Shown: positions 4,738 through 60,032, counted from the stretch's first letter. The stretch is DNA of 64,000 bases from Prevotella sp. (GCA_051875605.1 JBJEHA010000013.1:3648-67647); one strand, 5' to 3'. Notes: generated by a model not told the origin, from the sequence alone. A program made the numbers and translations.

Positions 4738-5279
4738 CAAATTGTCAGAATTTTGTATATTTTCGTGACACTTTGATTTTTTGGCCATTTATGGATAATC
4801 ATGCGAGAGTGGAATTTTGTGCACCAGCGGAATTTTTGGGTTCCGGAGAGCTGTTTTGTAAACCATTGATAATCAATGGAATAAGTTTTTACATCCGGAA
4901 AGTGTTAACAAAAATCACCCGATTTTAACCTAAAATCCGTTAAATTCGTGCACAAAACAGCCAGTTTGTGCAGTTTTCAGTCCCCTTTTTTCGCACTTTT
5001 GGCCGGAAAATTGCGGTTTTGGGGTAGAAAAACCTGAGTTTTTGCCCCGAAACAGTTAAGTTTTTCCTCAAAAACACTTAAGTGCCGGATCGAAAATAGT
5101 TAACTAATTTTCTGGAAACAGTTAAGTGTTTCCCCCCTAACACTTAACTAATTTTTCCGTTTTGTGCAAAAAACCGACAATTCACACTTATTAACATGAA
5201 AACCAACCTAAAACCACCTGTTTTTCAAGACCACAAAAAATCAAAGTGTCACGAAAAAGCCAGTTTTCGTGACACTTTG
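4738..5279 (+). repeat. 542-bp dispersed intergenic element, copy 1
   Basis: End modules at 4738-4775 and 5242-5279; TTAA boxes at 5056/5078/5100/5122/5144; colinear with five other copies. Confidence 0.95.
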
Positions 5280-5339
5280 ATTTTAGGTAAACCATTCTCC
5301 TGTGCTTCATTCAGCAGGCTCATGCCGTTCCTGCACAGG

Positions 5340-6257
5340 TCAATATACACGCAGGGTATCGCCCACCCGTATCTGATAATAAGGTTCAAGATGATTTTTC
5401 TTGTACAGGCTTTTCAGTCGCATACCGTAACGTTGCGCGATGGAGTACATGCTTTCGCCTTCCTTGACCACATGTGGCCGTTTCTTGAACGCCTTGTCGG
5501 CCTTGCTACGCTTCTTTTTCAGATATACCACTTCGCCCTCGTTGAGTACATCCTTCCTGTTGCGTTCGTTGTAGCGTGCAATCTTCCGGTAGGATATGCC
5601 CACCTCCTTGCCGATGGAGCGGAACGTATCACCTTTGCGTGCTACGAGATAATAGTTGTCGTTGTAGCGGTAGATGGAATGCAACGTCTGTCCCTTGGCC
5701 GGCGTGTCGGTAGAAGAGTGATGGGCCAGGAATTTGTCATAGCTGGTTGCCCTGTCGTATTTCTGTAGCCCGTAGAGTTCAATGATTTCGATGAGCTTGT
5801 CGGCATAGCGCGGATTGGTGGCGTAACCACATCGCTTCAGCCCCACAGCCCACCCCTTGTAGTCGGTGCGTTTCAGGTTGAACAGCGAGGCATACCTGCC
5901 CGAAGTGGCCAGGAAGCGGCTATGGTCCTCATAGCTTTCCAGTACAGTATTGTATGCGCGGAAGCATTCCTGCCGTGCATCGTCGTCATGATAGGTCTTC
6001 CTGCCTGTCCACCCATGGCATTTTATGCCGAAGTGGTTATTGCCCTTCGTGGCCAGTTCACTTCTGCCAGCGGCACTCTCAAGCAGTCCCTGGGCCAGGG
6101 TTATGCTGGCGGGAATGTTATAGCGCAACATCTGTGAAATGGCAAGGTCCTTGTATTGGTCAATGTAGTTGAGATAAGCTGTATTCTGACGCAACTGCGC
6201 CTTTACGACGACTGTAGCCGTCAGGGTGAGCAGACAAAAAAGCAAACGTTTGATCAT
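5340..6257 (-). CDS. GH73 glucosaminidase with LysM domains (peptidoglycan hydrolase)
   Basis: Signal peptide; SITLAQGLLESAAG, NNHFGIKC and GYATNPRYA motifs; two C-terminal LysM-like repeats (ARKGDTFRSI, VKEGESMYSIAQRYG). Confidence 0.88.
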   Translation of the reverse strand: MIKRLLFCLLTLTATVVVKAQLRQNTAYLNYIDQYKDLAISQMLRYNIPASITLAQGLLESAAGRSELATKGNNHFGIKCHGWTGRKTYHDDDARQECFRAYNTVLESYEDHSRFLATSGRYASLFNLKRTDYKGWAVGLKRCGYATNPRYADKLIEIIELYGLQKYDRATSYDKFLAHHSSTDTPAKGQTLHSIYRYNDNYYLVARKGDTFRSIGKEVGISYRKIARYNERNRKDVLNEGEVVYLKKKRSKADKAFKKRPHVVKEGESMYSIAQRYGMRLKSLYKKNHLEPYYQIRVGDTLRVY

Positions 6258-6355
6258 CGCGTGATATTAAAAGAAACTTAAAAAATACAAAACGCAAAAA
6301 TACATATAATCAATCAAAAAACGCTAAAATAATGGGGGCATTTAAAATTAATTAG

Positions 6356-6363
6356 TAATTTTG
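6356..6363 (+). promoter_or_regulatory. -7 box upstream of folK
   Basis: TAATTTTG(CA) immediately before the GTG at 6368. Confidence 0.5.
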
Positions 6364-6367
6364 CAAT

Positions 6368-6751
6368 GTGACAGATAAGAAGAGAGTGGTCATAGCCCTC
6401 GGTTCCAACACCGATGCAGAAACGCACATGGAACAGGCCAAGCGACTTGTTTGCAATGGTTTCAGCCATGTCAGGTTCTCCTCTGCCGTATGGACAGAAG
6501 CCATCGGCATGGTGTCAGGCCCTTTCCTGAACTGCATGGCATCGGCGGAAACCGGAATGGATGTCCAGTCGGTGCTGCGGCTGCTGAAGGACATCGAGAC
6601 CCGATGTGGTGACAGGCAGTACCTCCGTGCGGAAAGCAAGGTGCTGATGGATGCCGACCTGCTGCTCTACGGATCGGAACGCCATCACAGGACCGATTGG
6701 GATCGCCCATACATAGGACAGCTCTACTCGGAATTATTGCAAAACAGATAA
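6368..6751 (+). CDS. folK: 2-amino-4-hydroxy-6-hydroxymethyldihydropteridine diphosphokinase (HPPK)
   Basis: IALGSN at the N-terminus, FLNC, and DADLLLYG motif. Confidence 0.8.
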   Translation: MTDKKRVVIALGSNTDAETHMEQAKRLVCNGFSHVRFSSAVWTEAIGMVSGPFLNCMASAETGMDVQSVLRLLKDIETRCGDRQYLRAESKVLMDADLLLYGSERHHRTDWDRPYIGQLYSELLQNR

Positions 6752-6759
6752 TCGTTTAT

Positions 6760-8031
6760 ATGTTCAGGTCTATCATTATTGCCGTGCTGGCTGGTCTTTC
6801 AGTCGGCACACATGCACAGGAATTTCACAAACACTTCAAGGACAGCACACTCAGAATTGACTATATCTTCGCCGGAAACACGGAACGGCAGGAGATTTCG
6901 CTCGACCGCATGCACACCATGCCCGGATGGTATGGGAAGCATGCACGGCTGGCAGAAGTGCCTGTAGAAGGCAACGGCCAGATTACCGTGCGCAGCCATC
7001 GTACCGGAGAGACCCTCTACCGCAACTCTTTTTCCACACTGTTCCAGGAATGGCTGTCCTATGACGAAGCCAAGACGGTCAGGAAATCGTTCGAGAATGT
7101 GTTCCTCGTACCTATGCCACGCGATACGGTGGACATCACTGTGGACCTGCGCAACAACCGCAGGGAAATCATGGCCAGCATGACCCACACCGTGGTACCT
7201 GGCGACATACTCATCAGGAAAACGGGGTTTGGCCGTACCACACCCTACTCCACTCTGCTGAAAGCAAAAGACCCGTCAAGGTGCATACACATCGCCTTCC
7301 TGGCTGAGGGCTATCAGGAGAGCGAGATGGAGATGTTTGAAAAGGATGCCTCCACAGCCATGGAGGCCATTTTCAGCCATGAGCCGTTCAAGTCCATGCG
7401 CGACAGGTTCAACGTCATAGCCGTGAAGTCGCCTTCGGAGGAGAGCGGAACCAGTGAACCTGCCAACGACATCTGGAAGAACACGGCACTGGGCAGTCAT
7501 TTCGACACGTTCTACAGCGACCGCTATCTGACCACACTCCATCTGAAGGACATGCACGACTGGTTGGCTGGTACGCCATACGAGCACATCATCGTGTTGG
7601 TGAATACCGGGAAATATGGCGGCGGAGGCATTCTCAACTCCTACAACCTCTCCATGACACATCATGAGAAATTCAAACCGGTGGTAGTACATGAGTTTGG
7701 ACACAGTTTTGCCGGATTGGGCGATGAATATGCCTACGAGGAGGAACTGATACCCATGTATCCGCATGACGTGGAGCCATGGGAAGCGAACCTGACCACG
7801 CTGGCAGATTTCCACGGAAAGTGGGAGACCATGATCGGAAAAGGCACTCCCATCCCTACCCCAGCCAATGGCGAAAAGGACAAGGTCGGGGTGTATGAAG
7901 GTGCAGGGTATAGTCCGAAGGGTGTGTACCGCGGTATGCAGGACTGCCGTATGCGCACCAACGAATACCCGGAGTTCTGTATGGTCTGTGAAAAGGCCTT
8001 ACGCAATCTCATAGACTTCTATACACGATAA
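6760..8031 (+). CDS. Peptidase M64 family (IgA peptidase-like)
   Basis: Signal peptide from ATG 6760; HEFGHSFAGLGDEY zinc motif; C-terminal CRMRTN...FCMVC. Confidence 0.85.
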   Translation: MFRSIIIAVLAGLSVGTHAQEFHKHFKDSTLRIDYIFAGNTERQEISLDRMHTMPGWYGKHARLAEVPVEGNGQITVRSHRTGETLYRNSFSTLFQEWLSYDEAKTVRKSFENVFLVPMPRDTVDITVDLRNNRREIMASMTHTVVPGDILIRKTGFGRTTPYSTLLKAKDPSRCIHIAFLAEGYQESEMEMFEKDASTAMEAIFSHEPFKSMRDRFNVIAVKSPSEESGTSEPANDIWKNTALGSHFDTFYSDRYLTTLHLKDMHDWLAGTPYEHIIVLVNTGKYGGGGILNSYNLSMTHHEKFKPVVVHEFGHSFAGLGDEYAYEEELIPMYPHDVEPWEANLTTLADFHGKWETMIGKGTPIPTPANGEKDKVGVYEGAGYSPKGVYRGMQDCRMRTNEYPEFCMVCEKALRNLIDFYTR

Positions 8032-8046
8032 AACAGGCTACAGCCG

Positions 8047-8649
8047 GTGAGTTACATGCAATTGTACGTGATTGCGCTGTTTGCCATGCTGTCAGAGTGG
8101 ACTTCGTCCTCAGCCATGGCACAGACCAGAAACGCAGACAGTGAACAGTTGTCCAAGGCCATCGAGTATTTCCAGAGTGGCAAGTACCATGAGGCCATGC
8201 TCATATTGCAGCCACTGGACAGCAGATATAAGCTCAATCCACGCTTCAGGGCTTATCTCGGCGTGTGCTGTTATTATGAATGGGACTATGAGAACGCGAC
8301 ACGATATCTGGACGAATCGCTTGGATATCTCGATGTTTTCGCTCCGCACGAACAGAGCATATACTATTACTGTGATGCCGAGAGCCATTTCCAGCTCGAA
8401 GCCTTCGAAAAAGCCATTCCACTGTATGAACGTGTGGTCAATGTGTGTTATGACAACGAAAAGGCTGACGTGTTCTTCAGGCTGGGATTCTGCTACATGT
8501 CCATGCGCCAATGGGAAACGGCACAGGAGTATTTCGAAAGTGCACAGGCCTACTATGTGCAGTTCGGCTGCCCAGACGATAAACTGCCAAGAATGGAGCA
8601 GCTGAAGAAAATGATTGCAGGATGTGCCCAATATCAAGGCAAAGACTGA
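8047..8649 (+). CDS. Tetratricopeptide-repeat protein, probably exported
   Basis: Helical repeats with TPR-like patterns (AESHFQLEAFEKAIPLY; FFRLGFCYMSMRQWETAQEYF). Confidence 0.7.
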   Translation: MSYMQLYVIALFAMLSEWTSSSAMAQTRNADSEQLSKAIEYFQSGKYHEAMLILQPLDSRYKLNPRFRAYLGVCCYYEWDYENATRYLDESLGYLDVFAPHEQSIYYYCDAESHFQLEAFEKAIPLYERVVNVCYDNEKADVFFRLGFCYMSMRQWETAQEYFESAQAYYVQFGCPDDKLPRMEQLKKMIAGCAQYQGKD

Positions 8650-8673
8650 CATTAAAGCGTATTGGCATGCAAA

Positions 8674-8689
8674 TGGCATGATGTTTGCT
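8674..8689 (+). promoter_or_regulatory. Putative sigma54 (-24/-12) promoter for clpC
   Basis: TGGCATG-ATGT-TTGCT versus consensus TGGCACG-N4-TTGCW (one mismatch), 31 nt before the clpC ATG. Confidence 0.5.
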
Positions 8690-8720
8690 GAATAAAACTA
8701 AACATTAATCAACTCATTTT

Positions 8721-11255
8721 ATGATGACCAGTCAATTCTCCCCCAACGTATCACAGATACTTGCCTTCAGTAAAGAAGAGGCCATGCGCCTTTCAAGCAA
8801 GGCCGTCGGGCCTGAACACTTGTTACTGGGCATACTCAGGGAAAAGGAAAGTCTGCTCGGGCGGATGTTTCTCATGATGGATGTGAACCCACAGACGGTC
8901 AAGAAGGAACTGGAGAAAAAAATCCAGGAAACCGACAGCAAGATAAATGGTCCGGTGATGGACATCATGCTCACAGACAAGGCCAGCAACATTCTTAAGC
9001 TGGCTGTTCTCGAAGCGCGTCTGCAACGCACTCAGACCGTTGACGTGCAGCATCTTGTACTGGCCATACTGCATGACTCTTCTGAAAATGGGGCCAAGGA
9101 AATTCTGGAAAACAACAATATGGACTACGATAATACACTCAAATTCTTCAAAAGCCAGACCAATCAGGTGCGTAATGGCATAGGATTGCCTGAAGACGAT
9201 GACCTGCTGGATGAACAGGCTGGCTCTGCAAAAGAAACAAAAGGCACACATAGTGCAACTGCCGTTAAGGGAAAGAACACAAAGACACCGGTTCTTGACA
9301 ATTTCTCAACAGACCTGACTCAGGCTGCTCTGGATGGCAAGCTCGACCCCGTTATCGGTAGGGAAAACGAAATCATGCGTGTCACGGAAATACTGAACAG
9401 ACGGAAAAAGAACAATCCCATACTCATCGGTGAACCGGGTGTGGGGAAAAGTGCCATAGCTGAAGGACTTGCACAACTCATTGCAAAACGTCAGACTTCA
9501 CCTTTGTTGTTCGGCAAGCGAATCGTCAGCCTGGACATGACCTCCATTGTTGCAGGAACAAAATACAGAGGACAATTCGAGGAACGCATACAGGCTTTAC
9601 TGAAAGAACTTGAAGAGAATAGTGATATCATTGTATTCATTGACGAGATTCACACGCTCGTGGGGGCAGGCAGTACACCGGGCAGCATGGATGCAGCCAA
9701 TATCATGAAACCGGCGTTGGCCAGAGGTACAATACAGTGTATCGGCGCAACGACACTAGACGAATACCGGAACAGCATAGAAAAAGACGGTGCATTGGAG
9801 CGTCGTTTCCAGAAGGTAATGGTGGAACCGACTACACCGGAGCAGACGCTGGACATTCTGCAAAACATAAAAGACAGGTATGAAACACATCACTTGGTAG
9901 AATATACAGACGATGCACTGAAAGCGTGTGTCAAGTTGACGGAACGATACATTACAGACAGATGTTTCCCCGACAAAGCCATAGACGCACTGGATGAAGT
10001 CGGTGCAAAAGTACATTTAAAGAATACAAGTGTCCCTCCGTTCTATGAGGAAATGCAGAAGGCCATTGACGATACCAAGACACAGAAAATGTGTGCTGTC
10101 AAAGAACAGAATTTTGAACTGGCTGCAAGAATCAGGGACAAACAGGTCGCTCTGGAGAAAGAGTTTGAGGACCTATGTGTGGAATATCTCAAAGACAAGA
10201 AGGAAAACCGCATAACTGTTACTGAAACGGAAGTTGCGGAAGTTGTTTCCATCATGTCGGGCGTTCCTGTTCAAAGAGTAGCAGAATCGGAAGGAATCCG
10301 GCTGAAAGGAATGGCAGAATCGCTTCGACAGGTTGTAGTGGCTCAGGATAAGGCTATAGACAAGATGGTGAAAGCCATCCTACGCAACAGGGTGGGACTG
10401 AAGGACCCTAACCATCCTATCGGAGTGTTCATGTTCCTTGGCCCAACGGGTGTAGGCAAGACTTATCTGGCAAAGGAACTGGCCAGGTTCATGTTCGGTT
10501 CCACGGATGCGCTCATCCGCGTGGACATGAGTGAATACACGGAGAGTTTCAATGTCTCCCGACTCGTCGGTCCGCCTCCAGGATATGTCGGCTATGAAGA
10601 AGGAGGCCAATTGACGGAAAAGGTTCGCAGACATCCCTATTCAATTGTCCTGCTTGATGAAATCGAGAAAGCCCATGGCAATGTATTTAACCTTTTGCTG
10701 CAGGTGCTTGACGAAGGCAGGTTGACAGACGGCAACGGCCGACTGGTTGATTTCCGCAACACAGTGATAATCATGACTTCAAACGCCGGAACAAGGCAAT
10801 TAAAGGATTTTGGCCGCGGAATAGGTTTCACTGCAACATCATTTGGTTCTGACATTGACGAGAGCGACAAGGAATATGCCAGAAGCATTATCCAGAAAAC
10901 ACTCAGCAAGCAGTTTGCGCCGGAATTCCTTAACCGTCTGGACGAAATCATCACATTCGACCAGCTCGACAAGAACGCCATCAAGTCGATTACGGATATA
11001 GAATTGGGTAAGTTACTTCGCCGGATGGAAGGCCTTGGCTATAGTGTCGAGGTGTCAGAGAAGGCAAGGGAACTGATTGCATCGAAGGGTTATGACGTGC
11101 AGTTCGGAGCCCGGCCGTTGAAACGTGCCATCCAGTCGTACGTAGAGGACGGCCTTTGCGAGATGATTCTAACGGATGAACTTCAGAAAGGTTCGAAGAT
11201 AATCGTTGACCGTGAAGACGGTGCTGAGAAACTTTCCTTCCGTGCCGAGCAATAG
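8721..11255 (+). CDS. clpC: ATP-dependent Clp protease ATP-binding subunit ClpC
   Basis: Clp N-domain, Walker A motifs GEPGVGKS and [11 protein letters not shown]-like [13 protein letters not shown] middle domain, [10 protein letters not shown]. Confidence 0.92.
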
Positions 11256-11328
11256 TCAAGTGCAGGATTTAGAGTGATTTAGTTCTGTTTTCCAGAAACA
11301 AAGTCCTGGTTGCAGGAAACGGATACAG

Positions 11329-11378
11329 GCGAACGCGCAGATAGACATGTGGAATTGTCTGTCTGCGCGTTCGCTTTT
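11329..11378 (+). terminator. Intrinsic terminator after clpC
   Basis: 19-bp stem GCGAACGCGCAGATAGACA/TGTCTGTCTGCGCGTTCGC (one G.T pair) followed by TTTT. Confidence 0.75.
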
Positions 11379-11401
11379 CCTGTTGTCATGGTGCAGTTTC
11401 T

Positions 11402-12478: not shown

Positions 12479-12490
12479 AATTACCTGTTA

Positions 12491-13384: not shown

Positions 13385-14145
13385 ATTATTGTTTGTTTTC
13401 TGAATTCAGCGCAAACCACAGCCGTGGCTATGGCTACATTGAGGCTCTCTGCACATGTCGTTTCCTGTTGATAACAAGGTATATAGAGCCTCCGGTTCAC
13501 GCGTTTCCTTATGTCTTCAGATATGCCGTTGCCCTCATTTCCCATCACTATCATGCCGTGATGCGTGAGCTGCTGCGCATAGATGTTCTCGCCATCGAGC
13601 AGCGTGCCATAAACCGGATAGCCATCGGGCAAGCGGTCGATGAATGCGGACAGGTCTGTGTAGCACAGCCTCACGCGTGCTATGCTTCCCATGGTGGCCT
13701 GCACCACTTTCGGATTATATTGGTCGGCACAATCCGGGCTGCACACTATGGTATCGATGCCGAACCAGTCAGCCACCCGGATGATTGTGCCGAGATTGCC
13801 GGGATCCTGCACCCCGTCAAGAGCCAGGCAAAGGCGGTGCTCCACATCGGCTGCTGACAGGCTGGCTGACGGCTGACGGAAAACGGCGATTACCTGTTGC
13901 GGATGTTGCAGGAAACTTACCTTGCGCAGGGTTTCCTCATCCACCTCATACAATTCCGTGTCTTCAGGCAGTCTTTTCCCCACCGGTTGCCATTGGGATG
14001 TAGCAGCAACAAGTACGGGCACCAAGCCATGGTCAAGCAGGTCGCCCACCACTTTCGGCCCTTCCGCCACGAACACCCCTTCCGCCCTCCGGTTCTTCTT
14101 CAGTTCGAGTGAACGGATGTATTTTATCTTGTTCTTACTGAGCAT
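13381..14145 (-). CDS. TrmH/SpoU family RNA methyltransferase
   Basis: SpoU motifs LDGVQDPGNLGTIIR, GNEGNGIS, ESLNVAIA. Confidence 0.9.
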   Translation of the reverse strand: MLSKNKIKYIRSLELKKNRRAEGVFVAEGPKVVGDLLDHGLVPVLVAATSQWQPVGKRLPEDTELYEVDEETLRKVSFLQHPQQVIAVFRQPSASLSAADVEHRLCLALDGVQDPGNLGTIIRVADWFGIDTIVCSPDCADQYNPKVVQATMGSIARVRLCYTDLSAFIDRLPDGYPVYGTLLDGENIYAQQLTHHGMIVMGNEGNGISEDIRKRVNRRLYIPCYQQETTCAESLNVAIATAVVCAEFRKQTII

Positions 14146-14161
14146 GCCCTCAATTTTTGTG

Positions 14162-14169
14162 CAAACTTA
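14162..14169 (-). promoter_or_regulatory. -7 box for the methyltransferase operon
   Basis: Reverse complement TAAGTTTG(CA). Confidence 0.55.
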
Positions 14170-14248
14170 CATATTTTTTTCCGAATAACCACAGTGACAG
14201 GTTTGTTTAACGCGATTCAACATTCTAAGCGCAATAAAAGCCAAAAAT

Positions 14249-14790
14249 CAAAGTGTCAGATTTTTAACACTTTTGCTTACATTTTGATTTTCCAGCCATT
14301 TCTGAAGATTCGGAGGGAACCTGGTTTTTGCGCGCCAACGATTTTTTTTGATTTTGGACGGCTGTTTTGTAAATCATTGATAGTCAATGAGATGATTTTT
14401 TAAAGACCGGGAGTGTTAAAGAAAATCGTCCGATTTTAACATAAAATCCGTTAAATTTATGCACAAAATGCGCGGTTTGTGCAGTTTTCAGCCCCCTTTT
14501 TTCGTACTTTTGGCTGGAAAATCGCGGTTTTGGGGCCGAAAAACCTGAGTTTTTGCCCCGAAACAGTTAAGTTTTTCCTCAAAAACACTTAAGTGCCGGA
14601 ACGAAAATAGTTAACTAATTTTCTGGAAACAGTTAAGTGTTCCCCCCCTAACACTTAACTGATTTTTCCGTTTTGTGCAAAAAACCGACATTTTGCACTT
14701 GTTAACATGAAAATCGGCTCAAAACCGCCTGTTTTTCAAGACCCCGAAAAATCAAAGTGTAAGCAAAAACGTTAAAATTCTGACACTTTG
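14249..14790 (+). repeat. 542-bp dispersed intergenic element, copy 2
   Basis: End modules at 14249-14286 and 14753-14790; first TTAA box at 14567 (offset 319, as in copy 1). Confidence 0.95.
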
Positions 14791-14881
14791 CAAAAAGCGG
14801 GTATAGTCTCCTGTCCTTTTTCGGGAGACTGGTGCACAAACTTTTCAAACGTACCTCAATAAGAATTTGAAAAAAAAATCG

Positions 14882-14889
14882 TAACTTTG
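14882..14889 (+). promoter_or_regulatory. -7 box upstream of the ABC-F gene
   Basis: TAACTTTG(CA). Confidence 0.55.
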
Positions 14890-15003
14890 CATGTATATTT
14901 TCAGATAGGTATATTTCACGGCAAGCCTCCTCCCCAATTGCAGAGAGAAGTGGATTTTGTTCAGCAGACAGTTGCCGTGTGCAAGGCATAGAAGATAGAA
15001 ACA

Positions 15004-16941
15004 ATGATTTCAGTAGAAGGATTGAAGGTGGAGTTCGGCATCAAACCGCTGTTTGCCGATGCCTCATTCGTGGTCAACGACCATGACCGCATAGCCCTTG
15101 TGGGAAAGAACGGCGCAGGAAAGTCCACCCTTTTGAAGATACTCAACGGTTCGCAACAGCCTACAGCCGGCAGCGTTTCCGCATCAACCGGCACCACCAT
15201 AGGCTATCTGCCGCAGGTCATGAAGCTTCAGGACGACACCACCGTGCGCGAGGAGGCACGCAAGGCCTTTGCCGATACCACAAGGATGAAGGAACGCATA
15301 GACCGCATGAACCAGGAGCTGGCCGAACGCACCGACTATGAGAGCGGGGAATATCTGGCACTGGTGGAGAGGTTCACCGCAGAGCATGAGCGTTACATGA
15401 TGATGGGCGGGGAAAGTTATGAAGCCGAGATTGAGCGCACGCTGATAGGCCTGGGATTCGTGAAGACAGACTTCGACCGCCCTACAAGCGAGTTCAGCGG
15501 TGGCTGGCGCATGCGCATAGAGCTGGCCAAGATACTGCTGCGCAAGCCAGACGTGCTGCTGCTTGACGAGCCCACCAACCACCTCGACATAGAAAGCATA
15601 CAGTGGCTGGAGCGGTTTCTGGCCCAGGGAAGCAATGCCGTGGTTCTGGTGAGCCATGACCGCGCATTCATCAACAACGTCACCAACAGGACGCTGGAGA
15701 TATCCTGCGGAAAGATCATCGACTACAAGGTGAACTACAACGAATATGTGACCCTGCGCACGGAACGGCGTGAGCAGCAGCTCCGCGCCTATCAGAACCA
15801 GCAGAAGGAAATAGCTGACATCAAGGATTTCATAGAACGTTTCCGCTATAAGCCCACAAAGGCCGTACAGGTGCAGAGCCGCATAAAGCAACTGGAGAAA
15901 ATCGTGCCGATAGAGATTGACGAGGTGGACAACTCCGCGCTCCACCTGAAGTTCCCCCCTTGCCTGCGCAGCGGTGACTACCCGCTCATCTGCGATGAGC
16001 TGGGAAAGACCTATGGTGCTCACAAGGTGTTCGGACATGCCACGTTCACCCTGAAGCGCGGCGAGAAGGTGGCCTTCGTGGGCAAGAACGGTGAAGGCAA
16101 ATCGACATTGGTGAAATGTATCATGGACGAAATACCATATACAGGTACGCTGAAGTTGGGACACAACGTGCAGATCGGCTATTTCGCGCAGAACCAGGCT
16201 CAGCTGCTGGACGAGCGGCTCACCGTGTTCCAGACCATCGACAATGTGGCCACGGGAGATGTGCGCATGCGCATCAACGACATCCTGGGCGCCTTCATGT
16301 TCGGCGGCGAGGCATCGGAAAAACCCGTGAAGGTGCTGAGCGGTGGCGAACGCAGCCGGCTGGCCATGATTCAGCTGCTGCTCAAACCGGTGAACTTCCT
16401 GATACTGGACGAGCCGACCAATCATCTGGACATGCCTTCAAAGGATGTGCTGAAAGAGGCCATAAAGGCATTCGACGGAACAGCCATCATCGTGAGCCAT
16501 GACCGTGAATTCCTTGACGGGCTGGTGAGCAAGGTCTATGAGTTCGGCCAGGGCAGGGTAAAGGAACACCTGGGAGGCATCTACGACTTCCTGCGCTCAC
16601 AGGACCAGACCATCGACGAAAGGCTCTCCATGGCTTCACCTGTACAGTCCAAGGTCCAGCCTCAGAAAGCCGAGGAGGCAGCCACCGGGAAGCAGTCGTA
16701 TGAGGAACGGAAGGAAATGCAGCGGCGCAGGAACCGGCTTGAAAAAGCCGTAAAGGAAAGCGAAAGGAAGATCGAGTCGATGGAGAACAGGCTCAAGGAA
16801 CTGGATGCCATACTCTGCCAGCCCGAGAACGCATCGGACATGGAAATCATTACAGAATACACCTCCACCAAACGGTGTCTGGACAAGGAGGTGGAAAACT
16901 GGGAAAAGCTGAGCGAGGAACTGGAAAATACCACAGCATAG
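15004..16941 (+). CDS. ABC-F family ATP-binding protein
   Basis: Two ABC cassettes (GKNGAGKST/FSGGWRMR and GKNGEGKST/LSGGERSR, each with DEPTNHLD), no transmembrane segments, C-terminal coiled coil. Confidence 0.9.
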   Translation: MISVEGLKVEFGIKPLFADASFVVNDHDRIALVGKNGAGKSTLLKILNGSQQPTAGSVSASTGTTIGYLPQVMKLQDDTTVREEARKAFADTTRMKERIDRMNQELAERTDYESGEYLALVERFTAEHERYMMMGGESYEAEIERTLIGLGFVKTDFDRPTSEFSGGWRMRIELAKILLRKPDVLLLDEPTNHLDIESIQWLERFLAQGSNAVVLVSHDRAFINNVTNRTLEISCGKIIDYKVNYNEYVTLRTERREQQLRAYQNQQKEIADIKDFIERFRYKPTKAVQVQSRIKQLEKIVPIEIDEVDNSALHLKFPPCLRSGDYPLICDELGKTYGAHKVFGHATFTLKRGEKVAFVGKNGEGKSTLVKCIMDEIPYTGTLKLGHNVQIGYFAQNQAQLLDERLTVFQTIDNVATGDVRMRINDILGAFMFGGEASEKPVKVLSGGERSRLAMIQLLLKPVNFLILDEPTNHLDMPSKDVLKEAIKAFDGTAIIVSHDREFLDGLVSKVYEFGQGRVKEHLGGIYDFLRSQDQTIDERLSMASPVQSKVQPQKAEEAATGKQSYEERKEMQRRRNRLEKAVKESERKIESMENRLKELDAILCQPENASDMEIITEYTSTKRCLDKEVENWEKLSEELENTTA

Positions 16942-25593: not shown

Positions 25594-26134
25594 CAAAGTG
25601 TCAGGATTTTAACACTTTTGCTTACACTTTGATTTTTCGGCATTCGTAAAAGCGGCCAGTTTTGGGTCGATTTTCATGTTAATAAGTGTGAATCGTCAGT
25701 TTTTTGCACAAAACGGGAAAATCAGTTAAGTGTTAGGGGGGAAACACTTAACTGTTTCCAGAAAATTAGTTAACTATTTTCGATCCGGCACTTAAGTGTT
25801 TTTGAGGTAAAACTTAACTGTTTCGGGGCAAAAACTCAGGTTTTTCGGCCTCAAAACCGCGATTTTCCGGCCAAAAGTGCGGAAAATGGGGGCTGAAAAC
25901 TGCACAAACTGGCTTTTTTGTGCACGAATTTAACGGATTTTAGGTTAAAATTGTGCGGTTTTTGTTAACACTTCGCATCAGTAAAAAATATACCATTGAT
26001 TATCAATGGTTTACAAAACAGGCCTCCGAAACCTGGAATTTACGCTGGCGCAAAAAAATCCGAATTCGCCGGATTCTACAGAAATGGTCGAAAAATCAAA
26101 GTGTAAGCAAAAATGTTAAAAAACTGACATTGTG
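25594..26134 (-). repeat. 541-bp dispersed intergenic element, copy 3 (reverse orientation)
   Basis: End modules at 25594-25631 and 26097-26134; one 1-nt deletion relative to the other copies between offsets 142 and 165. Confidence 0.95.
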
Positions 26135-36624: not shown

Positions 36625-37166
36625 CAAATTGTCACATTTTCGTTCATTTCTGTGACACTTTGATTTTTCAGGATTATGAAAAAAAGGCGGTTTGAGGCTG
36701 ATTTTCATGTTAATAAGTGTGAATTGTCGGATTTTTGCACAAAACGGGAAAATTAGTTAAGTGTTAGGGGGGAAACACTTAACTGTTTCCGGAAAATTAG
36801 TTAACTGTTTTCGTTCCGGCACTTAAGTGTTTTTGAGGAAAAACTTAACTGTTTCGGGGCAAAAACTCAGGTTTTTCGGCCTCAAAACCGTGATTTTCCA
36901 GCCAAAAGTGTGGAAAAAGGGGGTTGAAAATTGCACAAATCGCGTGTTTTGTGCGTAAATTTAACGGATTTTAGGTTAAAATTGGACGGTTTTTATTAAC
37001 ACTTTCCGTCCATAAAAACTTATCTTATTGATTATCAACGGTTTTCAAAAAAGGTCTCTGAAACCGAGAAATTCCGCTGGCGTTCAAAAATACACTTCCG
37101 TCTGATTCTTCAGAAATGGCCGGAAAATCAAAGTGTAAGCAAAAGTGTTAAAAAAATGACACTTTG
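36625..37166 (-). repeat. 542-bp dispersed intergenic element, copy 4 (reverse orientation)
   Basis: End modules at 36625-36662 and 37129-37166; first TTAA box at offset 319. Confidence 0.95.
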
Positions 37167-46418: not shown

Positions 46419-46478
46419 CCCGACATTCACCCAATAAGCTGCCGGGCAATGGATAACACATGCTTTCAGCCTGAAAAT

Positions 46479-47020
46479 CAAAATGTCAGAATTTTGACGT
46501 TTTTTGTGACACTTTGATTTTCGGGCCATTTATGAAGATTTGGGCGAGAACGGATTTTTATGCGCCAGCGGAAAATTCCGGTTTTGGAAGACTAATTTGT
46601 AAACCATTGATAATCAACGGGATAAGTTTTTACAATCACAAAGTGTTAACAAAAACCGCCCGATTTTAACCTAAAATCCGTTAAATTCGTGCACAAAACG
46701 CGCGATTTGTGCAGTTTTCAGCCCCCATTTTCCGCACTTTTGGCCGGAAAATCGCGGTTTTGAGGCCGAAAAACCTGAGTTTTTGCCCCAAAACAGTTAA
46801 GTTTTTCCTCAAAAACACTTAAGTGCCAAGACGAAAATAGTTAACTAATTTTTCGGAAACAGTTAAGTGTTTCCCCCCTAACACTTAACTGATTTTTCCG
46901 TTTTGTGCAAAAAACCGGCAATTCACACTTATTAACGTGAAAATCGGTCAAAAACAGCCCGTTTTTCAGCACTCAGAAAAATCAAAGTGTCAGCAAAACC
47001 GTTAAAAATTTGACACTTTG
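46479..47020 (+). repeat. 542-bp dispersed intergenic element, copy 5
   Basis: End modules at 46479-46516 and 46983-47020; first TTAA box at 46797 (offset 319). Confidence 0.95.
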
Positions 47021-47099
47021 AAAATCGCAATCTCTCCATGACAATAACCCAGTAATTCGATTTTTTCTGTTCATCCTTGTCTGTGTCAGCAAAAAGCAG

Positions 47100-47107: not shown

Positions 47108-47127
47108 CAGCGGCTTGCAAAATGCAA

Positions 47128-47245
47128 GCTAAAGGGGTGCCCGCTGTGGCGGGCTGAGATCAGACCCTCTGACCTGATCCGGGTAATGCCGGCGTAGGGA
47201 TTTGGCAAAACATAAAAAGTGCCCCTTTTTGTGTATTCTTTTTTT
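47128..47245 (+). ncRNA. TPP (thi-box) riboswitch with terminator-type expression platform
   Basis: P1 GCTAAA/TTTGGC (47128-47133/47201-47206); GGGGTGC...GCTGAGA...ACCTGATCCGGGTAATGCCGGCGTAGGGA core; hairpin ACATAAAAAG/CTTTTTGTGT (47210-47234) plus a T-rich tract. Confidence 0.92.
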
Positions 47246-49580: not shown

Positions 49581-49592
49581 AAAGATACGGGA

Positions 49593-50881: not shown

Positions 50882-50910
50882 ACAGATTCCGTTAAATTAA
50901 ACCAAACAAG

Positions 50911-50952
50911 AAAACGGGGAAGCATCTGAATACCAGTATCTTCCCCGTTTTT
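50911..50952. terminator. Bidirectional intrinsic terminator
   Basis: AAAACGGGGAAG/CTTCCCCGTTTT arms between convergent genes. Confidence 0.75.
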
Positions 50953-50963
50953 ATTATACTTTA

Positions 50964-54448: not shown

Positions 54449-54475
54449 AAACAGTCTATTGCCAGGTCAGGCCCT

Positions 54476-55657
54476 TTATTTTTTCATATAGGGATCTGTT
54501 CCAAGTACCGTCTTGCTCAGCCGTTTAGCCTTTTCACGCAGTCCATTGACATCAGCATCAGGCTCGCCATAACAAAGCACAACACCCATTCTTCTTCCTA
54601 CATGCGCTTCCGGCTTACCGAAGATACGGATTCTTGTGTGGTCTTCGCTTAATGCCTCCGAAAGATGATAATCCAATGGACTGGCAGACTCAACAGGAGA
54701 CAGTATTACCGCACTCGCTCCAGCATGTTCGAGGTGGATACCTGCAATGGGCAATCCCATGACAGCACGGAAGTGAAGTTCAAATTCGCTCAGATTTGTT
54801 GTATGACCCAACGTCACCATACCTGTATCGTGCGGACGTGGAGAAAGCTCCGAGAAAATGACTTCCCCTTGCCGGGTAAGGAAGAACTCTACCCCCCATA
54901 TTCCTGCACCCGTCAATGCCTTCGTCACTTCTGCCGCCATGTGCTGTGCCTGTTTCAGGGCATGCTCAGGAATGCTGTATGGCTGCCAGCTTTCACGGTA
55001 GTCACCGTCTTTCTGCACATGACCTATCGGTGGGCAGAACAGGGTCTCACCGTTTTGCTGTGTTACCGTGAGCAAGGTAAACTCCGATTCAAAATCGATG
55101 AACTCTTCTATGATAACCTCCCTGACATCCCCCCGACTGCCTTCCATGGCTTCATGGAAAGCCTGTTCCAGTTCTTCATCGTTATGCACATAGCTTTGCC
55201 CATGGCCGCTCGATGACATGAGTGGCTTTACGACACATGGGAACCCGATGCTTTGCGCGGCAGCCTTAAACTCTTCCATTGTCTTTGCATAGAAATAACG
55301 TGCTGTGCGCAATCCCAGTTCACGCGAAGCAAGATCGCGTATTGCCCTGCGGTTCATGGTGTAGTTCACGGCTCTCGCGCTTGGTACTACCTGGATGCCT
55401 TCTTCCTCATATTTAAAGAGTCTTTCCGTACGTATGGCCTCAATTTCCGGAACAATGATGTCCGGCTGATGCTTCCTGACCACATGGTCCAAAGCATCAC
55501 CGTCAAGCATGGAGAACACCTCACATTCATCAGCCACCTGCATAGCCGGAGCCATTGCATATCTGTCACATGCCACCACATACTGTCCGGCCCTTTTGGC
55601 TGCAATCACAAATTCCTTACCCAGTTCACCTGAGCCTAAAAGCAATATTTTCTTCAT
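54476..55657 (-). CDS. purT: Formate-dependent phosphoribosylglycinamide formyltransferase
   Basis: [40 protein letters not shown]. Confidence 0.93.
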
Positions 55658-55663
55658 TGTTTT

Positions 55664-56797
55664 CTACCTGTTTCTGTACATGTTTTCGTAATATTTCTGA
55701 TAGTCGCCCGAAGTGACATTATTGAGCCACTCCTCATTCTCAAGATACCATTTAACGGTTTTCTCTATGCCTTCCTCAAACTGCAGAGAGGGTTCCCATC
55801 CCAGTTCACGCTGTAACTTGGTGGAGTCGATGGCGTAGCGCAGGTCATGGCCGGCACGGTCTGTGACATAGGTGATGAGGTCAAGGTCCTCACCTTCCTT
55901 TCGGCCCAGGAGCCTGTCCACCGTTCTGATGACCACTTTTATGATGTCAATGTTCTTCCATTCGTTAAACCCGCCTATATTATAGGTTTCGGCAATCTTT
56001 CCCTGGTGGAAGATGATGTCGATGGCCCTCGCATGGTCTTCCACATACAGCCAGTCACGCACGTTCTCTCCCTTGCCATAGACGGGCAGTGGCTTACGGT
56101 GGCGAATGTTGTTGATGAACAACGGTATAAGTTTTTCGGGGAACTGATAGGGACCATAGTTATTGGAACAGTTGGTCACTATGATAGGCATGCCATAAGT
56201 ATCATGATAAGCCCTCACGAAATGGTCGCTGCTGGCCTTGGAAGCCGAATAAGGTGAGTGAGGATTGTATTTTGTGGTTTCATAGAAGAAGTCCTCACCG
56301 TATGCCAGATGGTGTTCACCGGACGAGGCCGCTGTCGAGAAAGGAGGTTCTATGCCTTCTGGATGTGAAAGCGGCAGGGCACCATAGACTTCGTCTGTCG
56401 ATATGTGGTAGAATCGTTTCCCCTCATATTTCCCGGGCAGTGACTCCCAATAGAGCTTGGCAGCCTGAAGCAGCGAGAGAGTGCCCATCACATTGGTGCG
56501 TGCGAATGTGAACGGGTCTTTTATGGAACGGTCCACATGGCTCTCCGCAGCCAGATGTATGATGCCATCGACTTGATACCTGCCCATCAGTTCGAGCATG
56601 GTGTCGAAATCGCAAATATCAGCCTTGACAAAGGTGTAGTTGGGCTTCTCTTCCACATCCTTAAGATTGGCAAGGTTTCCGGCATAGGTTAGTTTGTCCA
56701 GATTGATAATATGGTAATCCGGATACTTGTTCACGAAAAGGCGTACGACATGACTGCCTATGAATCCGGCTCCGCCGGTAATGATGATTGTCTTCAT
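55664..56797 (-). CDS. rfbB: dTDP-glucose 4,6-dehydratase
   Basis: TGGAGFIGS, HLAAESHVDRSI, ISTDEVYG, YSASKA, NNYGPYQFPEKLIP. Confidence 0.95.
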   Translation of the reverse strand: MKTIIITGGAGFIGSHVVRLFVNKYPDYHIINLDKLTYAGNLANLKDVEEKPNYTFVKADICDFDTMLELMGRYQVDGIIHLAAESHVDRSIKDPFTFARTNVMGTLSLLQAAKLYWESLPGKYEGKRFYHISTDEVYGALPLSHPEGIEPPFSTAASSGEHHLAYGEDFFYETTKYNPHSPYSASKASSDHFVRAYHDTYGMPIIVTNCSNNYGPYQFPEKLIPLFINNIRHRKPLPVYGKGENVRDWLYVEDHARAIDIIFHQGKIAETYNIGGFNEWKNIDIIKVVIRTVDRLLGRKEGEDLDLITYVTDRAGHDLRYAIDSTKLQRELGWEPSLQFEEGIEKTVKWYLENEEWLNNVTSGDYQKYYENMYRNR

Positions 56798-56814
56798 ATA
56801 TAGTATAAGTGATT

Positions 56815-57318
56815 TTATGCTTTTCTGCTGTCATTCAGGGTCACCACTTCACAGTCCGTGAAACGTTGTCCCTCTATGGTGAGCCTCACGATGGTCCTGT
56901 CCTTGTGCCATCCCTGCATGCCTGCCGCTCCGGGATTGATGTGGAGCATGTTGAGTGTCTTGTCGAACTGGACCTTAAGGATGTGCGAGTGTCCGCAGAC
57001 AAAGAGCCGGGGCGGTGAGGCGTAGAGCGTGCCGCGCACCGAGGGGTCGTAGTGTCCGGGATAGCCGCCAATATGCTTCAGCAACACGTCAACATCTTCG
57101 CACTTGAAGCGTAGCCGTTCTGTGAACATGCGTCTGAGGTCGCCTCCGTCACAGTTGCCGCAGACCGCCCTCAGCATCCGGAAATCCGCCAGCCGCTGGG
57201 CGACCTCAAGCGTTCCTATATCACCCGCATGCCATATCTCATCACAGGGCTCAAAGTAGTGCAGATAGCGGTCATCCCACCATCCGTGGGTATCGCTGAT
57301 GATGCCGATGCGCTTCAT
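56815..57318 (-). CDS. YfcE-like metallophosphoesterase
   Basis: SDTHG, HAGD, GNCD, GHSH, NPG motifs. Confidence 0.85.
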   Translation of the reverse strand: MKRIGIISDTHGWWDDRYLHYFEPCDEIWHAGDIGTLEVAQRLADFRMLRAVCGNCDGGDLRRMFTERLRFKCEDVDVLLKHIGGYPGHYDPSVRGTLYASPPRLFVCGHSHILKVQFDKTLNMLHINPGAAGMQGWHKDRTIVRLTIEGQRFTDCEVVTLNDSRKA

Positions 57319-57977
57319 GGCAACTGACTTTCTGGTACATCCCCGCCGTCACCGGGACAAGCCTTTCTCCGCTCCTCCACATAGTGTGCCAGCAGTTCCA
57401 CCGTACCCTCGATTCCCAGGCGCGACGAGTTGACGCAGAGGTCATAGCCGTCTGCCGCCGCCCAGATCTTGCCTGTATAGTAGTTGTAATACGCGGCCCT
57501 CCGTGTCTCGGTGTCGTCTATGTATTTTGCAGCCGAATCCTCGTCACATCCTCTTCTCAGTGCCACCCTTTGCAACCGTTCCTTGGCATCGGCCGTAACG
57601 AATACGCTCACCATGCCTGGAAAGTCGCGCAGGATATAGTCTGCACACCTTCCCACAAAGACACAGCTGCCTTTTTCCGCCGCCTTCCTGATGGCCTCCG
57701 ACTGCAACTGGAACAGCCATTCCTGCGAGAATCTGTTGTTGTAGAAATTGCTGTCGCCCACATGCGGCGCGTGCAGGTGGAAAAGTGTCTTGAGAAACCC
57801 TCGGTTTTCATCGTTCTCCTCAAAGAATTCCGTGCAGAAACCGCTTTCATCGGCAGCGAGGCTCAGGATTTCCCTGTCGTAGAACTGTGCGCCCAGTCGC
57901 TCGGCCAGTGCCTTGGCTATGGTCGAACCTCCACTGCCCATCTGTCGGCCTATGCAGATTGTCATATTGTTGTCCAT
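57315..57977 (-). CDS. Cytidylate kinase-like family protein
   Basis: IGRQMGSGG P-loop variant, VFVGRCADYIL, YDLCVNSS. Confidence 0.8.
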   Translation of the reverse strand: MDNNMTICIGRQMGSGGSTIAKALAERLGAQFYDREILSLAADESGFCTEFFEENDENRGFLKTLFHLHAPHVGDSNFYNNRFSQEWLFQLQSEAIRKAAEKGSCVFVGRCADYILRDFPGMVSVFVTADAKERLQRVALRRGCDEDSAAKYIDDTETRRAAYYNYYTGKIWAAADGYDLCVNSSRLGIEGTVELLAHYVEERRKACPGDGGDVPESQLP

Positions 57978-57986
57978 TGCTATCGG

Positions 57987-59342
57987 TCAGTTATGTTGTT
58001 GTCTTCTTGTCCGTTTCATGAAAAGCCCCATCACCACCGCTGTCACCACCGCCGAGCAAAGGTCTGATGCCGGCATGGCATACCAAACGCCGTCCACGCC
58101 CCAGATGCGCGGCAGCAGCACGAGCAAGGGCAGCAGGAATATGAGCTGCCGAGAGAGCGACAGGAATATGCTCACACTGGCCTTGCCGATGCTCTGGAAG
58201 AAATTGGTGATGACCATCTGGTAGCCTACGACCGGCAGCACGAGCATGAGTATGCGCATGGCACGCACCGTGAGCTGTGTCAGTTCCTCGTCGCTGGTGA
58301 ACAGCCTTGCACACGGATGTGTGAAGAACTCCGCCAGCACCCATCCGCCGGTCATCACGACCGTTGCCGCCATAATAGAGAGGAACAGCGCCCGCATGAG
58401 CCTGTCCGTATGCCCGGCACCATAGTTGTAACCGGCAATGGGCTGCATGCCCTGGTTGATGCCCATCGTCACCATGACAAAGATGAATGCCACCCTGTTG
58501 GCTATGCCGTATGCACCCACAGCCATATCGCCTCCGTGGCGCATCAGGCCGTTGTTGATGAACACCACCACCAGGCAGGCACAGGCATTCATGGCAAAAG
58601 GTGAGCAGCCTATGCCCACGATGTTCCTGACGATGGTCCATCGCGGTGCGAAGGTACCTTGTTCCAGGTGAACCAGCTCATCCTGACGGCAGAACACAGA
58701 GAGCTGCCACACCATGGCCACAGCCTGTGACAGCACCGTGGCCCACGCTGCACCGCGGATGCCCATTCCCAGACCATAGATGAAGAGCGGGTCGAGCAAC
58801 GTATTGAGTGCCACCGTGCACATGGTGGCGTACATGGCCTTACGCGGTTTCCCCGATGCCCGCAAGGCTGCATTCATGCCGAAATAGACATGCGTGACCA
58901 CATTGCCCAGCAGAATCACCTGCATATAGTCGCGTGCATAGGGAATGGTCTGTTCGCTCCCGCCGAAGAACAGCAGGATGTGGTCAAGGAAGAGCATGCT
59001 CACAACGCAGAACACCAGTCCGATGACCACATTCAGTGTCATGGTGTTGCCCAGTATGTGGACTGCCGTCCGGTAGTCCTTCTGCCCGAGCTTCACGGAG
59101 ATGAGCGTAGAGGCTCCCACACCTATCGCTGCACCGAAAGCGGCCGAGAGATTCATGAAGGGGAACGTCACGGCCAGACCGGATATGGCGAGTGCGCCCA
59201 CTCCCTGCCCGATGAAAATGCTGTCCACCATATTATAGAGGGAAGAAGCCGTCATGGCAATGATTGCAGGCAAAGCATATTGCATGAGCAACCGTCCCAC
59301 AGGTTTCGTTTCCAGCTCCAGAGTAGCTCTTCTGTTGTCCAT
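57987..59342 (-). CDS. MATE family efflux transporter
   Basis: PAIIAMTASSLYNMVDSIFIG, LNTLLDPLFI, GIRGAAWAT; twelve-TM pattern; ATG 59342; -7 box TATTTTTG at 59361-59368 on the minus strand. Confidence 0.9.
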   Translation of the reverse strand: MDNRRATLELETKPVGRLLMQYALPAIIAMTASSLYNMVDSIFIGQGVGALAISGLAVTFPFMNLSAAFGAAIGVGASTLISVKLGQKDYRTAVHILGNTMTLNVVIGLVFCVVSMLFLDHILLFFGGSEQTIPYARDYMQVILLGNVVTHVYFGMNAALRASGKPRKAMYATMCTVALNTLLDPLFIYGLGMGIRGAAWATVLSQAVAMVWQLSVFCRQDELVHLEQGTFAPRWTIVRNIVGIGCSPFAMNACACLVVVFINNGLMRHGGDMAVGAYGIANRVAFIFVMVTMGINQGMQPIAGYNYGAGHTDRLMRALFLSIMAATVVMTGGWVLAEFFTHPCARLFTSDEELTQLTVRAMRILMLVLPVVGYQMVITNFFQSIGKASVSIFLSLSRQLIFLLPLLVLLPRIWGVDGVWYAMPASDLCSAVVTAVVMGLFMKRTRRQQHN

Positions 59343-59490
59343 CTTCTGCTGATTATGCTGCAAAAATACAAAAAAAACGGCACTTAGGGTAGTCTGTGCT
59401 GCAAGAAAATGCACATATTCCGCCCCACCCGTCTGCAAATGGCTTCCAACGCTTCCAACTATACCGGAAGAATGCGCAGGGAAGGAAAAT

Positions 59491-60032
59491 CAAAATGTCA
59501 GATTTTCAGCCGATTTTGTGACACTTTGATTTTTCGCGGTCTTATAAAAAAGACTATTTTGGCCGGATTTTCATGTTAATAAGTGTAAATTACCGGTTTT
59601 TTGTACAAAATGGAAAAATCAGTTAAGTGTTAGGGGGGAAACACTTAACTGTTTCCAGAAAATTAGTTAACTATTTTTGTTCCGGCACTTAAGTGTTTTT
59701 GAGGCAAAACTTAACTGTTTCGGGGCAAAAACCTATGTTTTTCGGCCTCAAAACCGCGTTTTTCCGACCAAAAGTGCGGAAAAAGGGGGCTGAAAACTGC
59801 ACAAATCACGAGTTTTGTGCATGAATTTAACGGATTTTAGGTTAAAATCGGACGCTTTTTGTTAACACTTCACACCCATAAAAAACTACCCCATTGATTA
59901 TCAACGGTTTACAAAACAAGTCTCTAAAACCCAAAAAATACGCTGGCACGTAATAATCCGATCTCGCCCGACTCTTCAGAAATGGCCAGAAAATCAAAGT
60001 GTAAGCAATTGTGTTAAAAAACTGACACTTTG
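59491..60032 (-). repeat. 542-bp dispersed intergenic element, copy 6 (reverse orientation)
   Basis: End modules at 59491-59528 and 59995-60032; first TTAA box at offset 319. Confidence 0.95.

Follow-up and report, generated by a model that had tools for sequence, protein, structure and literature searches.

Bacterial dispersed repeats are usually viewed as small, randomly placed genomic parasites. The BOX elements of Streptococcus pneumoniae are modular boxA-boxB(n)-boxC repeats thought to act at the RNA level, and transposons of the Mu, Tn7, Tn3 and IS21 types carry several binding sites in their ends and exclude insertions near a resident copy. The closest described systems further include the bacterial miniature inverted-repeat transposable elements, or MITEs, such as the Correia elements (CREE) of Neisseria (PMC2649163) and the MITEs of Porphyromonas gingivalis (PMC4596501), as well as the bacterial interspersed mosaic elements (BIMEs) and the systems formed by repetitive extragenic palindromes (REPs), REP-associated tyrosine transposases (RAYTs) and REP doublets forming hairpins (REPINs) (PMC3116915, PMC3337134). 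Here, we describe a family of 542-bp elements, first seen as six copies in a 64,000-nucleotide stretch of DNA from Prevotella sp. (GCA_051875605.1 JBJEHA010000013.1:3648-67647; hereafter, the window), that differs from the usual view of such repeats. It is a real, very abundant and previously undescribed repeat family of the MITE/BIME kind, unusual for that kind in the minimum spacing of ~6 kb between copies, in the conservation of geometry over sequence and in the mosaic exchange of patches. We consider it probable that this is a lineage-specific family of non-autonomous, MITE/BIME-like repeats derived from a mobile element, estimated at about 130-165 copies and now apparently orphaned and fixed.

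Alignment confirmed all positions and strands that the first-pass annotation of the window had given for the six copies, namely, 4738..5279 (+, copy 1), 14249..14790 (+, copy 2), 25594..26134 (-, copy 3), 36625..37166 (-, copy 4), 46479..47020 (+, copy 5) and 59491..60032 (-, copy 6). Five of these are 542 bp long and copy 3 is 541 bp, with a mean column identity of 90% in a gap-free alignment. As annotated, all six sit between long open reading frames, contain no conserved reading frame of their own and account for about 5% (5.1%) of the window; copies 2, 4 and 6 occupy divergent intergenic regions (that of copy 4 separates PFK from an acyltransferase operon), copy 3 a convergent one, and copy 5 is found upstream of a TonB-dependent receptor gene, ahead of its promoter and riboswitch. 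The description as a six-copy family holds for the window but not for the genome from which the window comes (G000; 2.83 Mb, 95 contigs, 95% complete), where a blastn census yielded 100 full-length and 64 partial copies, together 66.9 kb or 2.36% of the genome. Given a non-coding share of ~13.5% by rough gene calls, the element makes up roughly a sixth of the intergenic DNA in this gut-type member of the Prevotellaceae. The partial copies are nearly all found at contig ends and are cut within the conserved core, indicating that the repeat itself fragments the assembly (64 contig ends); in other samples, a contig ends inside the core of copy 1, and Logan contigs end 53 nt into the end module of copy 6. 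All 87 classifiable copies lie between called genes, in 31 divergent, 40 tandem and 16 convergent settings, so that, as in MITEs, the element is small, non-coding, multi-copy and intergenic. Divergent, promoter-bearing regions are enriched for copies, with 10% of such regions occupied; in tandem contexts, 24 copies are co-oriented with the genes and 16 opposed.

Every feature of the previously annotated layout was found in the consensus. The 38-bp end modules are inverted copies of each other, that is, terminal inverted repeats (TIRs) as in MITEs, each end carrying CAAAGTGTCAG as its outer arm and CAAAGTGTAAG as its inner arm. Each end is itself palindromic, CAAAGTGTCA-N18-TGACACTTTG; because flanking AAAAT/ATTTT usually extends this palindrome, the functional module is ~48 bp rather than the 38 bp originally described. 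In copy 5, the left module (46474..46521) comprises the 38-bp TIR with AAAAT/ATTTT and the inverted 10-bp boxes around the 18-bp spacer, and folds as single-stranded DNA (ssDNA) at -9.2 kcal/mol (z = -3.4), and the right module (46978..47025), the left one inverted, folds at -9.1 kcal/mol (z = -4.7). The fold of the module is weak in G000 generally (-6 to -9 kcal/mol), and in another species the end module is a perfect hairpin (-20.6 kcal/mol). Across subfamilies and species, 9 of 21 end-module pairs have changed on both sides, a count reached in 0 of 500 shuffles. Such compensatory changes maintain the symmetry of the module, which argues that selection acts on the palindrome itself, in the form of either a hairpin or a symmetric protein site.

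Between the ends, the element carries an ordered series of sites: the TTGATAATCAA dyad at element positions 129-139 (46607..46617 in copy 5), GTGTTAAC at 165-172, the TGCACAAA-N8-TTTGTGCA dyad at 212-235 (46690..46713), with invariant arms and a variable spacer, a ladder of A/T tracts (46714..46792), five palindromic TTAA boxes of the ACACTTAAGTGT type (46793..46890) and TTTGTGCAAA at 424-433. The TTAA motifs of the boxes lie at positions 319, 341, 363, 385 and 407, a pitch of exactly 22 bp or two helical turns, and one half-site, ACACTT/AAGTGT, is the building unit of both the termini and the five core boxes. The phasing of the A/T tracts, ~10.75 bp, extends across the whole element, with a spectral power of ~10 compared with ~2 at the 99th percentile of shuffles. 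Length, indels and covariation were analysed in 67 exactly full-length copies. The core, with the box array as its best conserved segment, is 96-99% identical at ~100 loci, compared with 76-83% for the arms. Even within these variable arms, tract positions are better conserved than the G/C-rich spacers (0.91 vs 0.82 and 0.92 vs 0.73, p ~1e-5), and nearly all A/T tracts are present in 94-100% of copies. The exact length of 542 bp is kept in 50 of the 67 copies, which have accumulated 3611 substitutions vs 33 indel bases. Thus, with phased tracts retained and few indels, it is the geometry of the DNA, namely, register and the curvature read from the sequence, that is conserved, together with sites on one face of the helix.

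The distribution of copies along the contigs is no less constrained. Among 91 within-contig gaps, measured centre to centre, the shortest is 3.7 kb, only one is <6 kb and five are <8 kb, and the coefficient of variation (CV) is 0.50, compared with 0.93 under uniform placement. Placement confined to non-coding DNA would produce 34.5 gaps <6 kb (minimum 21 in 2000 simulations), and a null matched for the type of roomy intergenic regions 13.2 out of 49 (minimum 4 in 5000 simulations), where none was observed. A preference for a class of sites, such as convergent regions, was rejected as the cause because copies occupy all three types of regions and the type-matched nulls still fail. Nor is the exclusion a property of the assembly, because a REPIN-like family, denoted P and discussed below, shows none in the same contigs (7 of 26 gaps <1 kb, CV 1.12); moreover, chimeric joins at elements would leave gap lengths unchanged. 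Pooled hairpin variants were not used for this analysis, given that the loosened pattern returns mostly chance matches. A strict 11-kb periodicity was likewise rejected, the Rayleigh signal being weak (R ~0.25): the pattern is one of hard-core exclusion with a broad tail. The orientation of neighbours is random (same in 44 of 91 pairs), and the four shortest gaps all separate inverted pairs, a hint that close direct pairs are lost by deletion. We know of no report of a minimum distance between copies for bacterial MITEs or REPs. Overall, what the first-pass annotation had noted on spacing, box pitch, tract phasing and near-indel-free divergence proved accurate; strict periodicity, homogenisation of the two ends within a copy and a signature of inversion were not borne out.

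The third unusual property is the mosaic structure of the copies. Copy-to-copy identity averages 84.6%, with no pair above 93%, and linkage between variable sites is lacking at all distances (r2 ~0.02). Even at a separation of 17 bp, which single reads and k-mers span, complete linkage equilibrium holds for seven dinucleotide dimorphisms of a type that cannot arise by recurrent point mutation. Furthermore, pairs of copies that are otherwise 83-89% identical have in common tracts of 90-190 bp at 100% identity, above column-shuffled nulls: runs of at least 25 variable sites are found in 26 pairs vs 1.5 expected, and runs of at least 40 in 10 pairs vs 0 expected. For instance, positions 97-243 of copy 1 are 100% identical to those of the copy at C60:18874, and the two are 83.5% identical elsewhere; another copy is a mosaic of three donors. 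Given the dinucleotide equilibrium and the long common tracts, the lack of linkage cannot be explained by recurrent mutation on a star phylogeny alone, so that recombination is needed.

Comparison of orthologous copies suggests that this exchange is frequent. Three alleles of copy 4, from three assemblies, differ by 17-22% at positions 61-240 (window ~36927-37106) and yet are identical at 301 of 302 sites in positions 241-542, with flanks ~99.8% identical. Almost all of the alternative bases are common alleles of the family, and ~15 of the 39 changes are toward rare ones, which argues that the patches did not arise through simple correction to the majority allele during assembly; a more complex chimera could still produce them. 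In another strain, the ortholog of copy 3 has 15 differences, 11 of these at positions 240-298 (window 25837-25895), compared with 5 differences in 3125 bp of flank. Through such patch exchange, orthologous copies appear ~100 times more different than their flanks. In contig k141_496818 of ERZ27279456, compared with window positions 14100-15100, the left half of copy 2 and its left flank are identical to the window, whereas the right half and the far flank come from another copy; this switch inside the core reflects either crossover or rearrangement between copies or a chimera of the assembly or metagenome-assembled genome (MAG). The repeat may also give rise to chimeric joins when MAGs of this lineage are assembled from short reads, and the switch in copy 2 serves as a warning for synteny analyses. 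We read the pattern as a whole as probable concerted evolution through frequent ectopic gene conversion, with the larger tracts resting on short-read assemblies. If so, the uniformity of the core becomes weaker proof of selection on every copy.

The 542-bp element belongs to a broader assemblage. Family B of the same genome, with elements of ~800 bp (about 760-830 bp; C29:52317-53073, C29:61437-62258, C11:19156-19955 and C11:65894-66709), has in common with it the end module, the TTGATAATCAA dyad and the TGCACA...TGTGCA dyad; the left third is that of the 542-bp element, and the core differs, carrying four ~20-bp direct repeats (TTCACGCCGTGAACACTATA) that are iteron-like in look. Several further diverged variants in this genome mix hairpin variants. 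The two families with their subfamilies therefore form a combinatorial mosaic of palindromic units and other motifs, as BIMEs do. Beyond this genome, relatives are scarce. No exact match to the 32-nt invariant core was found among 185,579 species representatives. The end-module pattern, with 165 occurrences in G000, is absent, save for one chance-like match, from 400 genomes of the bacterial family; elsewhere, it occurs at ~30 loci in the MAG 'Prevotellaceae bacterium S34M_St_53', in six metagenome contigs and at single loci in Candidatus Prevotella equi and in a Bacteroidaceae MAG. In S34M_St_53, the hairpin ends a 430-bp non-coding element in which the second hairpin and the internal dyads differ, and a congener, G003, harbours ~450-bp elements of the same layout with ATTACA-N2-TGTAAT boxes. 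Among 121 genomes of the genus, just three (G000, G003 and G483) gave many matches to a structural hairpin model, and collections of phages and plasmids contained no match to the element. Such a patchy spread, with each species carrying its own version, is characteristic of mobile elements, whereas a conserved host device would not be expected to spread in this manner. The sister elements of S34M_St_53 and G003 (430-450 bp) provide material for comparing the co-evolution of sites and protein.

Under the scenario that we favour, that of a non-autonomous family derived from a mobile element, the element would have been spread by a trans-acting protein recognising the symmetric ACACTT/AAGTGT half-sites. 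The half-sites at the termini and in the five boxes, arrayed on curved DNA, may form a wrapped multi-site nucleoprotein complex similar to those of multi-site transposon ends, and the minimum spacing of ~6 kb would most readily be explained by an exclusion akin to transposition immunity during the spread, possibly sharpened by recombinational loss of close pairs. After the burst, short patches would have been exchanged between copies by ectopic gene conversion, homogenising the family within the species and helping to keep the core uniform. The first-pass annotation had proposed a multi-protein DNA platform acted on in trans; of this, the multi-site reading is reasonable, in view of the common half-site, the compensatory symmetry and the helical phasing, and the rest is conjectural. 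At the locus of copy 5, the element is absent in three distant congeners, in which synteny is not conserved; the empty locus may point to past insertion in the lineage, and present-day mobility is not supported.

Several observations weigh against such a mobile origin. Mobility has never been observed, and the six window copies are all present in assemblies of other samples. No significant target-site duplication was detected when all boundary offsets and lengths of 2-10 nt were compared with permuted flank pairs, the best case being 13 observed vs 6.2 expected in ~2900 tests; the outer flanks are A/T tracts, and whether one end has an AAAAT or a TTTTN flank is independent of the type at the other end. 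When all end modules of G000 were mapped, none flanked a coding segment and no repeat exceeded 860 bp, and in a scan of GTDB representatives and metagenome contigs, the relatives were all non-coding, with no autonomous element among them. The strong conservation of geometry and core at >100 loci could reflect a host function instead, and the large conversion tracts, derived from short-read assemblies, may be assembly effects. Finally, the one candidate source of immunity in the genome bin failed. A 4.07-kb contig (C9) encodes a DUF6431 protein, a Mu/Tn552-type DDE transposase (HTH_32, rve and Mu-transpos_C domains) and an AAA_22 ATPase; its rve gene is the sole one in G000, and the transposase and AAA+ ATPase pair, which is of the type that imposes target immunity, is the only one in the bin. 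This pair was rejected because it has no ends in common with the element and the contig is Firmicutes-like. Given that the genes of C9 have strong Shine-Dalgarno sites, that their nearest relatives reside on Clostridium plasmids (50% identity), that they are unique to G000 in the genus and that matching ends are missing, C9 is most likely a mis-binned, Firmicutes-derived contig in the MAG.

The wider search for a mobilising enzyme agrees with the first-pass annotation, according to which the window encodes no transposase or recombinase: family searches for Y1, rve, Tn3, DDE_Tnp_1 and tyrosine recombinases gave no match on contig C13, the contig of the window. Neither the window, nor the 95%-complete genome, nor the 185,579 species representatives contain a transposase with the same ends. 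A search of G000 for Tn3 transposases found none, and the genome has, in addition to the Y1 genes considered below, one IS4/5-type gene and six tyrosine recombinases. A composite transposon was considered for the inverted pair of family-B elements on C29 and rejected, as this pair encloses housekeeping genes (DapB, signal peptidase and WbqC), and just housekeeping genes were found also between unusually close copies, where a gene could have been nested as RAYT genes are. One of the tyrosine recombinases (Phage_integrase and SAM_5 domains; C11:19990-21000) has its stop codon 36 bp from a family-B element. It is divergent from a gene pair encoding proteins of 1086 and 547 aa, a layout typical of recombinase-controlled SusC/SusD loci of Bacteroidales. 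We rejected it as a partner of the family because it is a gene of the polysaccharide utilisation locus (PUL) type and just one of the four family-B copies has such a gene nearby.

Alternatively, and this is the main rival explanation, the element could be an architectural or regulatory DNA element maintained by the host, comparable to BIMEs or repetitive IHF-binding palindromic (RIP) elements, with each copy offering a curved platform of several sites to gyrase or a nucleoid-associated protein; this is possible, but we deem it unlikely. Under this scenario, with which a mobile origin is compatible, the minimum spacing would correspond in scale to supercoil domains and every copy would be under selection. 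The contrast between core and arms at ~100 loci, the maintenance of helical phasing and length, the retention of A/T tracts while the spacers between them vary, a spacing exclusion particular to the 542-bp family and the enrichment in divergent, promoter-bearing regions would all follow from it, and every copy checked is fixed in other strains. However, nearly all congeners lack the family and the interior differs in each carrier species, which makes a conserved genus-level host role unlikely. Moreover, gene conversion alone is able to keep the core uniform, this analysis found no candidate binding protein, and strict periodicity is not seen. A more elaborate version appears doubtful to us: a chromosome organiser, adopted by or always serving the host, in which ~150 curved site-array platforms load one protein, with an enforced minimum spacing of ~6-8 kb, register held by selection against indels and uniformity achieved by programmed or very frequent patch exchange.

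We further consider improbable a mobilisation as ssDNA by an HUH transposase of the Y1 type, which would make the element a derivative of the IS200/IS605 or RAYT type, similar to palindrome-associated transposable elements (PATEs) or REPINs, with the palindromes acting as hairpins. The lack of a target-site duplication and the palindromic ends, with their symmetry maintained by compensatory changes, fit this mechanism, as does the relative in S34M_St_53, which has a different hairpin at each end as in IS200/IS605. Moreover, G000 encodes three Y1 genes, one IS605-type with TnpB and two RAYT-like, each of the latter flanked by its own REP family (the P repeat, and GTAACCGCGCCGCGGTTAC), and 46 of 238 ends of the 542-bp element (19%) adjoin a P unit via a ~55-bp linker. 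Against this, the CAAAGTGTCA hairpin of the element, which would be expected to flank its RAYT, does not flank any of the three Y1 genes, and S34M_St_53 contains no Y1 match. The ends in G000 are true inverted repeats with weak folds, and a 542-bp unit with an internal array of boxes is unlike REPINs of ~100 bp. The IS605-type pair, located on a 2.7-kb contig (C32; TnpA of 135 aa and TnpB of 403+ aa, cut by the contig end), was rejected as a partner, being single-copy and having no sequence in common with any repeat family. The RAYT-like gene at C47:860-1309 has a third palindrome family (GAGTGTAACCGCGCCGCGGTTACACTCG) on both sides.

The P family itself consists of a palindromic ~115-bp unit, CTGGGGGTGTGGGCG...CGCCCACACCCCCAG, with ~52 sites in G000, all of them outside the window. 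On C30, P-type repeats flank a RAYT-like Y1 gene (~70.4-71.0 kb, within C30:70290-72345), which points to a REPIN/RAYT-like system in a member of the Prevotellaceae.

Structured non-coding RNA genes or cis-elements acting at the RNA level, for example, a terminator or a target that the inverted ends would form for RNase III, appear very improbable. The best conserved segment does include a terminator-like hairpin, TTAA boxes 4-5 followed by a T-run (46860-46891), and read-through transcription could allow the inverted termini to pair with each other, as in Correia elements (PMC2649163). However, the 67 copies show no base-pair covariation despite negligible background linkage, the only covariation being between adjacent bases, and the two ends do not co-vary (z = 1.4), so that an RNA fold is unsupported, and both end-to-end pairing and homogenisation of the termini within copies were rejected. 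In addition, orientation is independent of the neighbouring genes, and the conserved feature, the phasing of A/T tracts, is a property of DNA shape. As the first-pass annotation had stated, the element matches no known Rfam family: at the gathering threshold, the whole window contains a thiamine pyrophosphate (TPP) riboswitch alone, and a permissive scan of one copy peaks at 17 bits vs a cut-off of 50. A tRNA search found none. The TPP riboswitch (47123-47218, +, 75 bits) lies downstream of copy 5, at a distance of ~100 bp, and thus between this copy and the TonB-dependent receptor gene. The riboswitch of congeners has a TAACTTTG -7 box immediately on its 5' side, indicating that copy 5 lies upstream of an intact promoter.

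Least probable of all are invertons, DNA switches flipped by a site-specific recombinase at the inverted end modules: the ends are inverted repeats, their flank types assort independently and the genome encodes six tyrosine recombinases, but other strains carry the orthologs of copies 2, 3 and 4 in unchanged orientation, recombinases are not consistent neighbours of the copies (that by a family-B copy is PUL-type), ~150 homologous invertons in one genome would be unprecedented and no Bacteroidota-type promoter is seen by eye in the consensus.

Which of these explanations applies determines the significance of the spacing. If target immunity is its cause, an unknown Bacteroidota transposition system has left the family as its fossil footprint; if it results from selection, it points to a layer of chromosome organisation based on repeats. 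The first-pass annotation had recognised no known repeat with this multi-site architecture and considered an undescribed system possible. The element does not fall outside the known kinds, because TIRs, mosaic modules, intergenic sites and a patchy, lineage-specific expansion are traits of MITEs, BIMEs, BOX and Correia-type elements.

Nevertheless, the resemblance to each of the known systems is partial. With transposons subject to immunity, the family shares several repeated, here putative, binding sites within the ends and a distribution that exclusion near an existing copy would yield, namely, the observed minimum spacing. Unlike these transposons, it lacks 5'-TG...CA-3' termini with a 5-bp duplication, the genome contains no Tn3 transposase, and no transposase and ATPase pair lies between matching ends. 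As in BOX, conserved terminal modules are combined with exchangeable internal ones in ~100 copies and the mobilising enzyme is not known, but there is no sequence relationship, and in the present element it is the geometry of the DNA that is conserved. The mosaic of palindromic units, the long and apparently vertical persistence in one lineage and the compensatory maintenance of palindromes recall BIMEs and REPINs, and two genuine RAYT-like genes, each accompanied by a REP family of its own, are present in G000. However, no Y1 or RAYT gene is flanked by the palindrome of the element, the unit is 5-10 times the size of a REPIN, and its interior is a predicted phased array of binding sites rather than a spacer. 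With MITEs, the element shares the non-coding nature, the TIRs, the >100 dispersed intergenic copies, the lineage-specific expansion and an internal protein-binding or curved segment; as in the case of Correia elements, there is no known active transposase. It differs from MITEs in lacking a detectable target-site duplication and an autonomous element with matching ends and in its large size (542 bp), the ordered array of at least 9 sites, the minimum spacing of ~6 kb, the near-indel-free divergence and the pervasive exchange of patches between copies.

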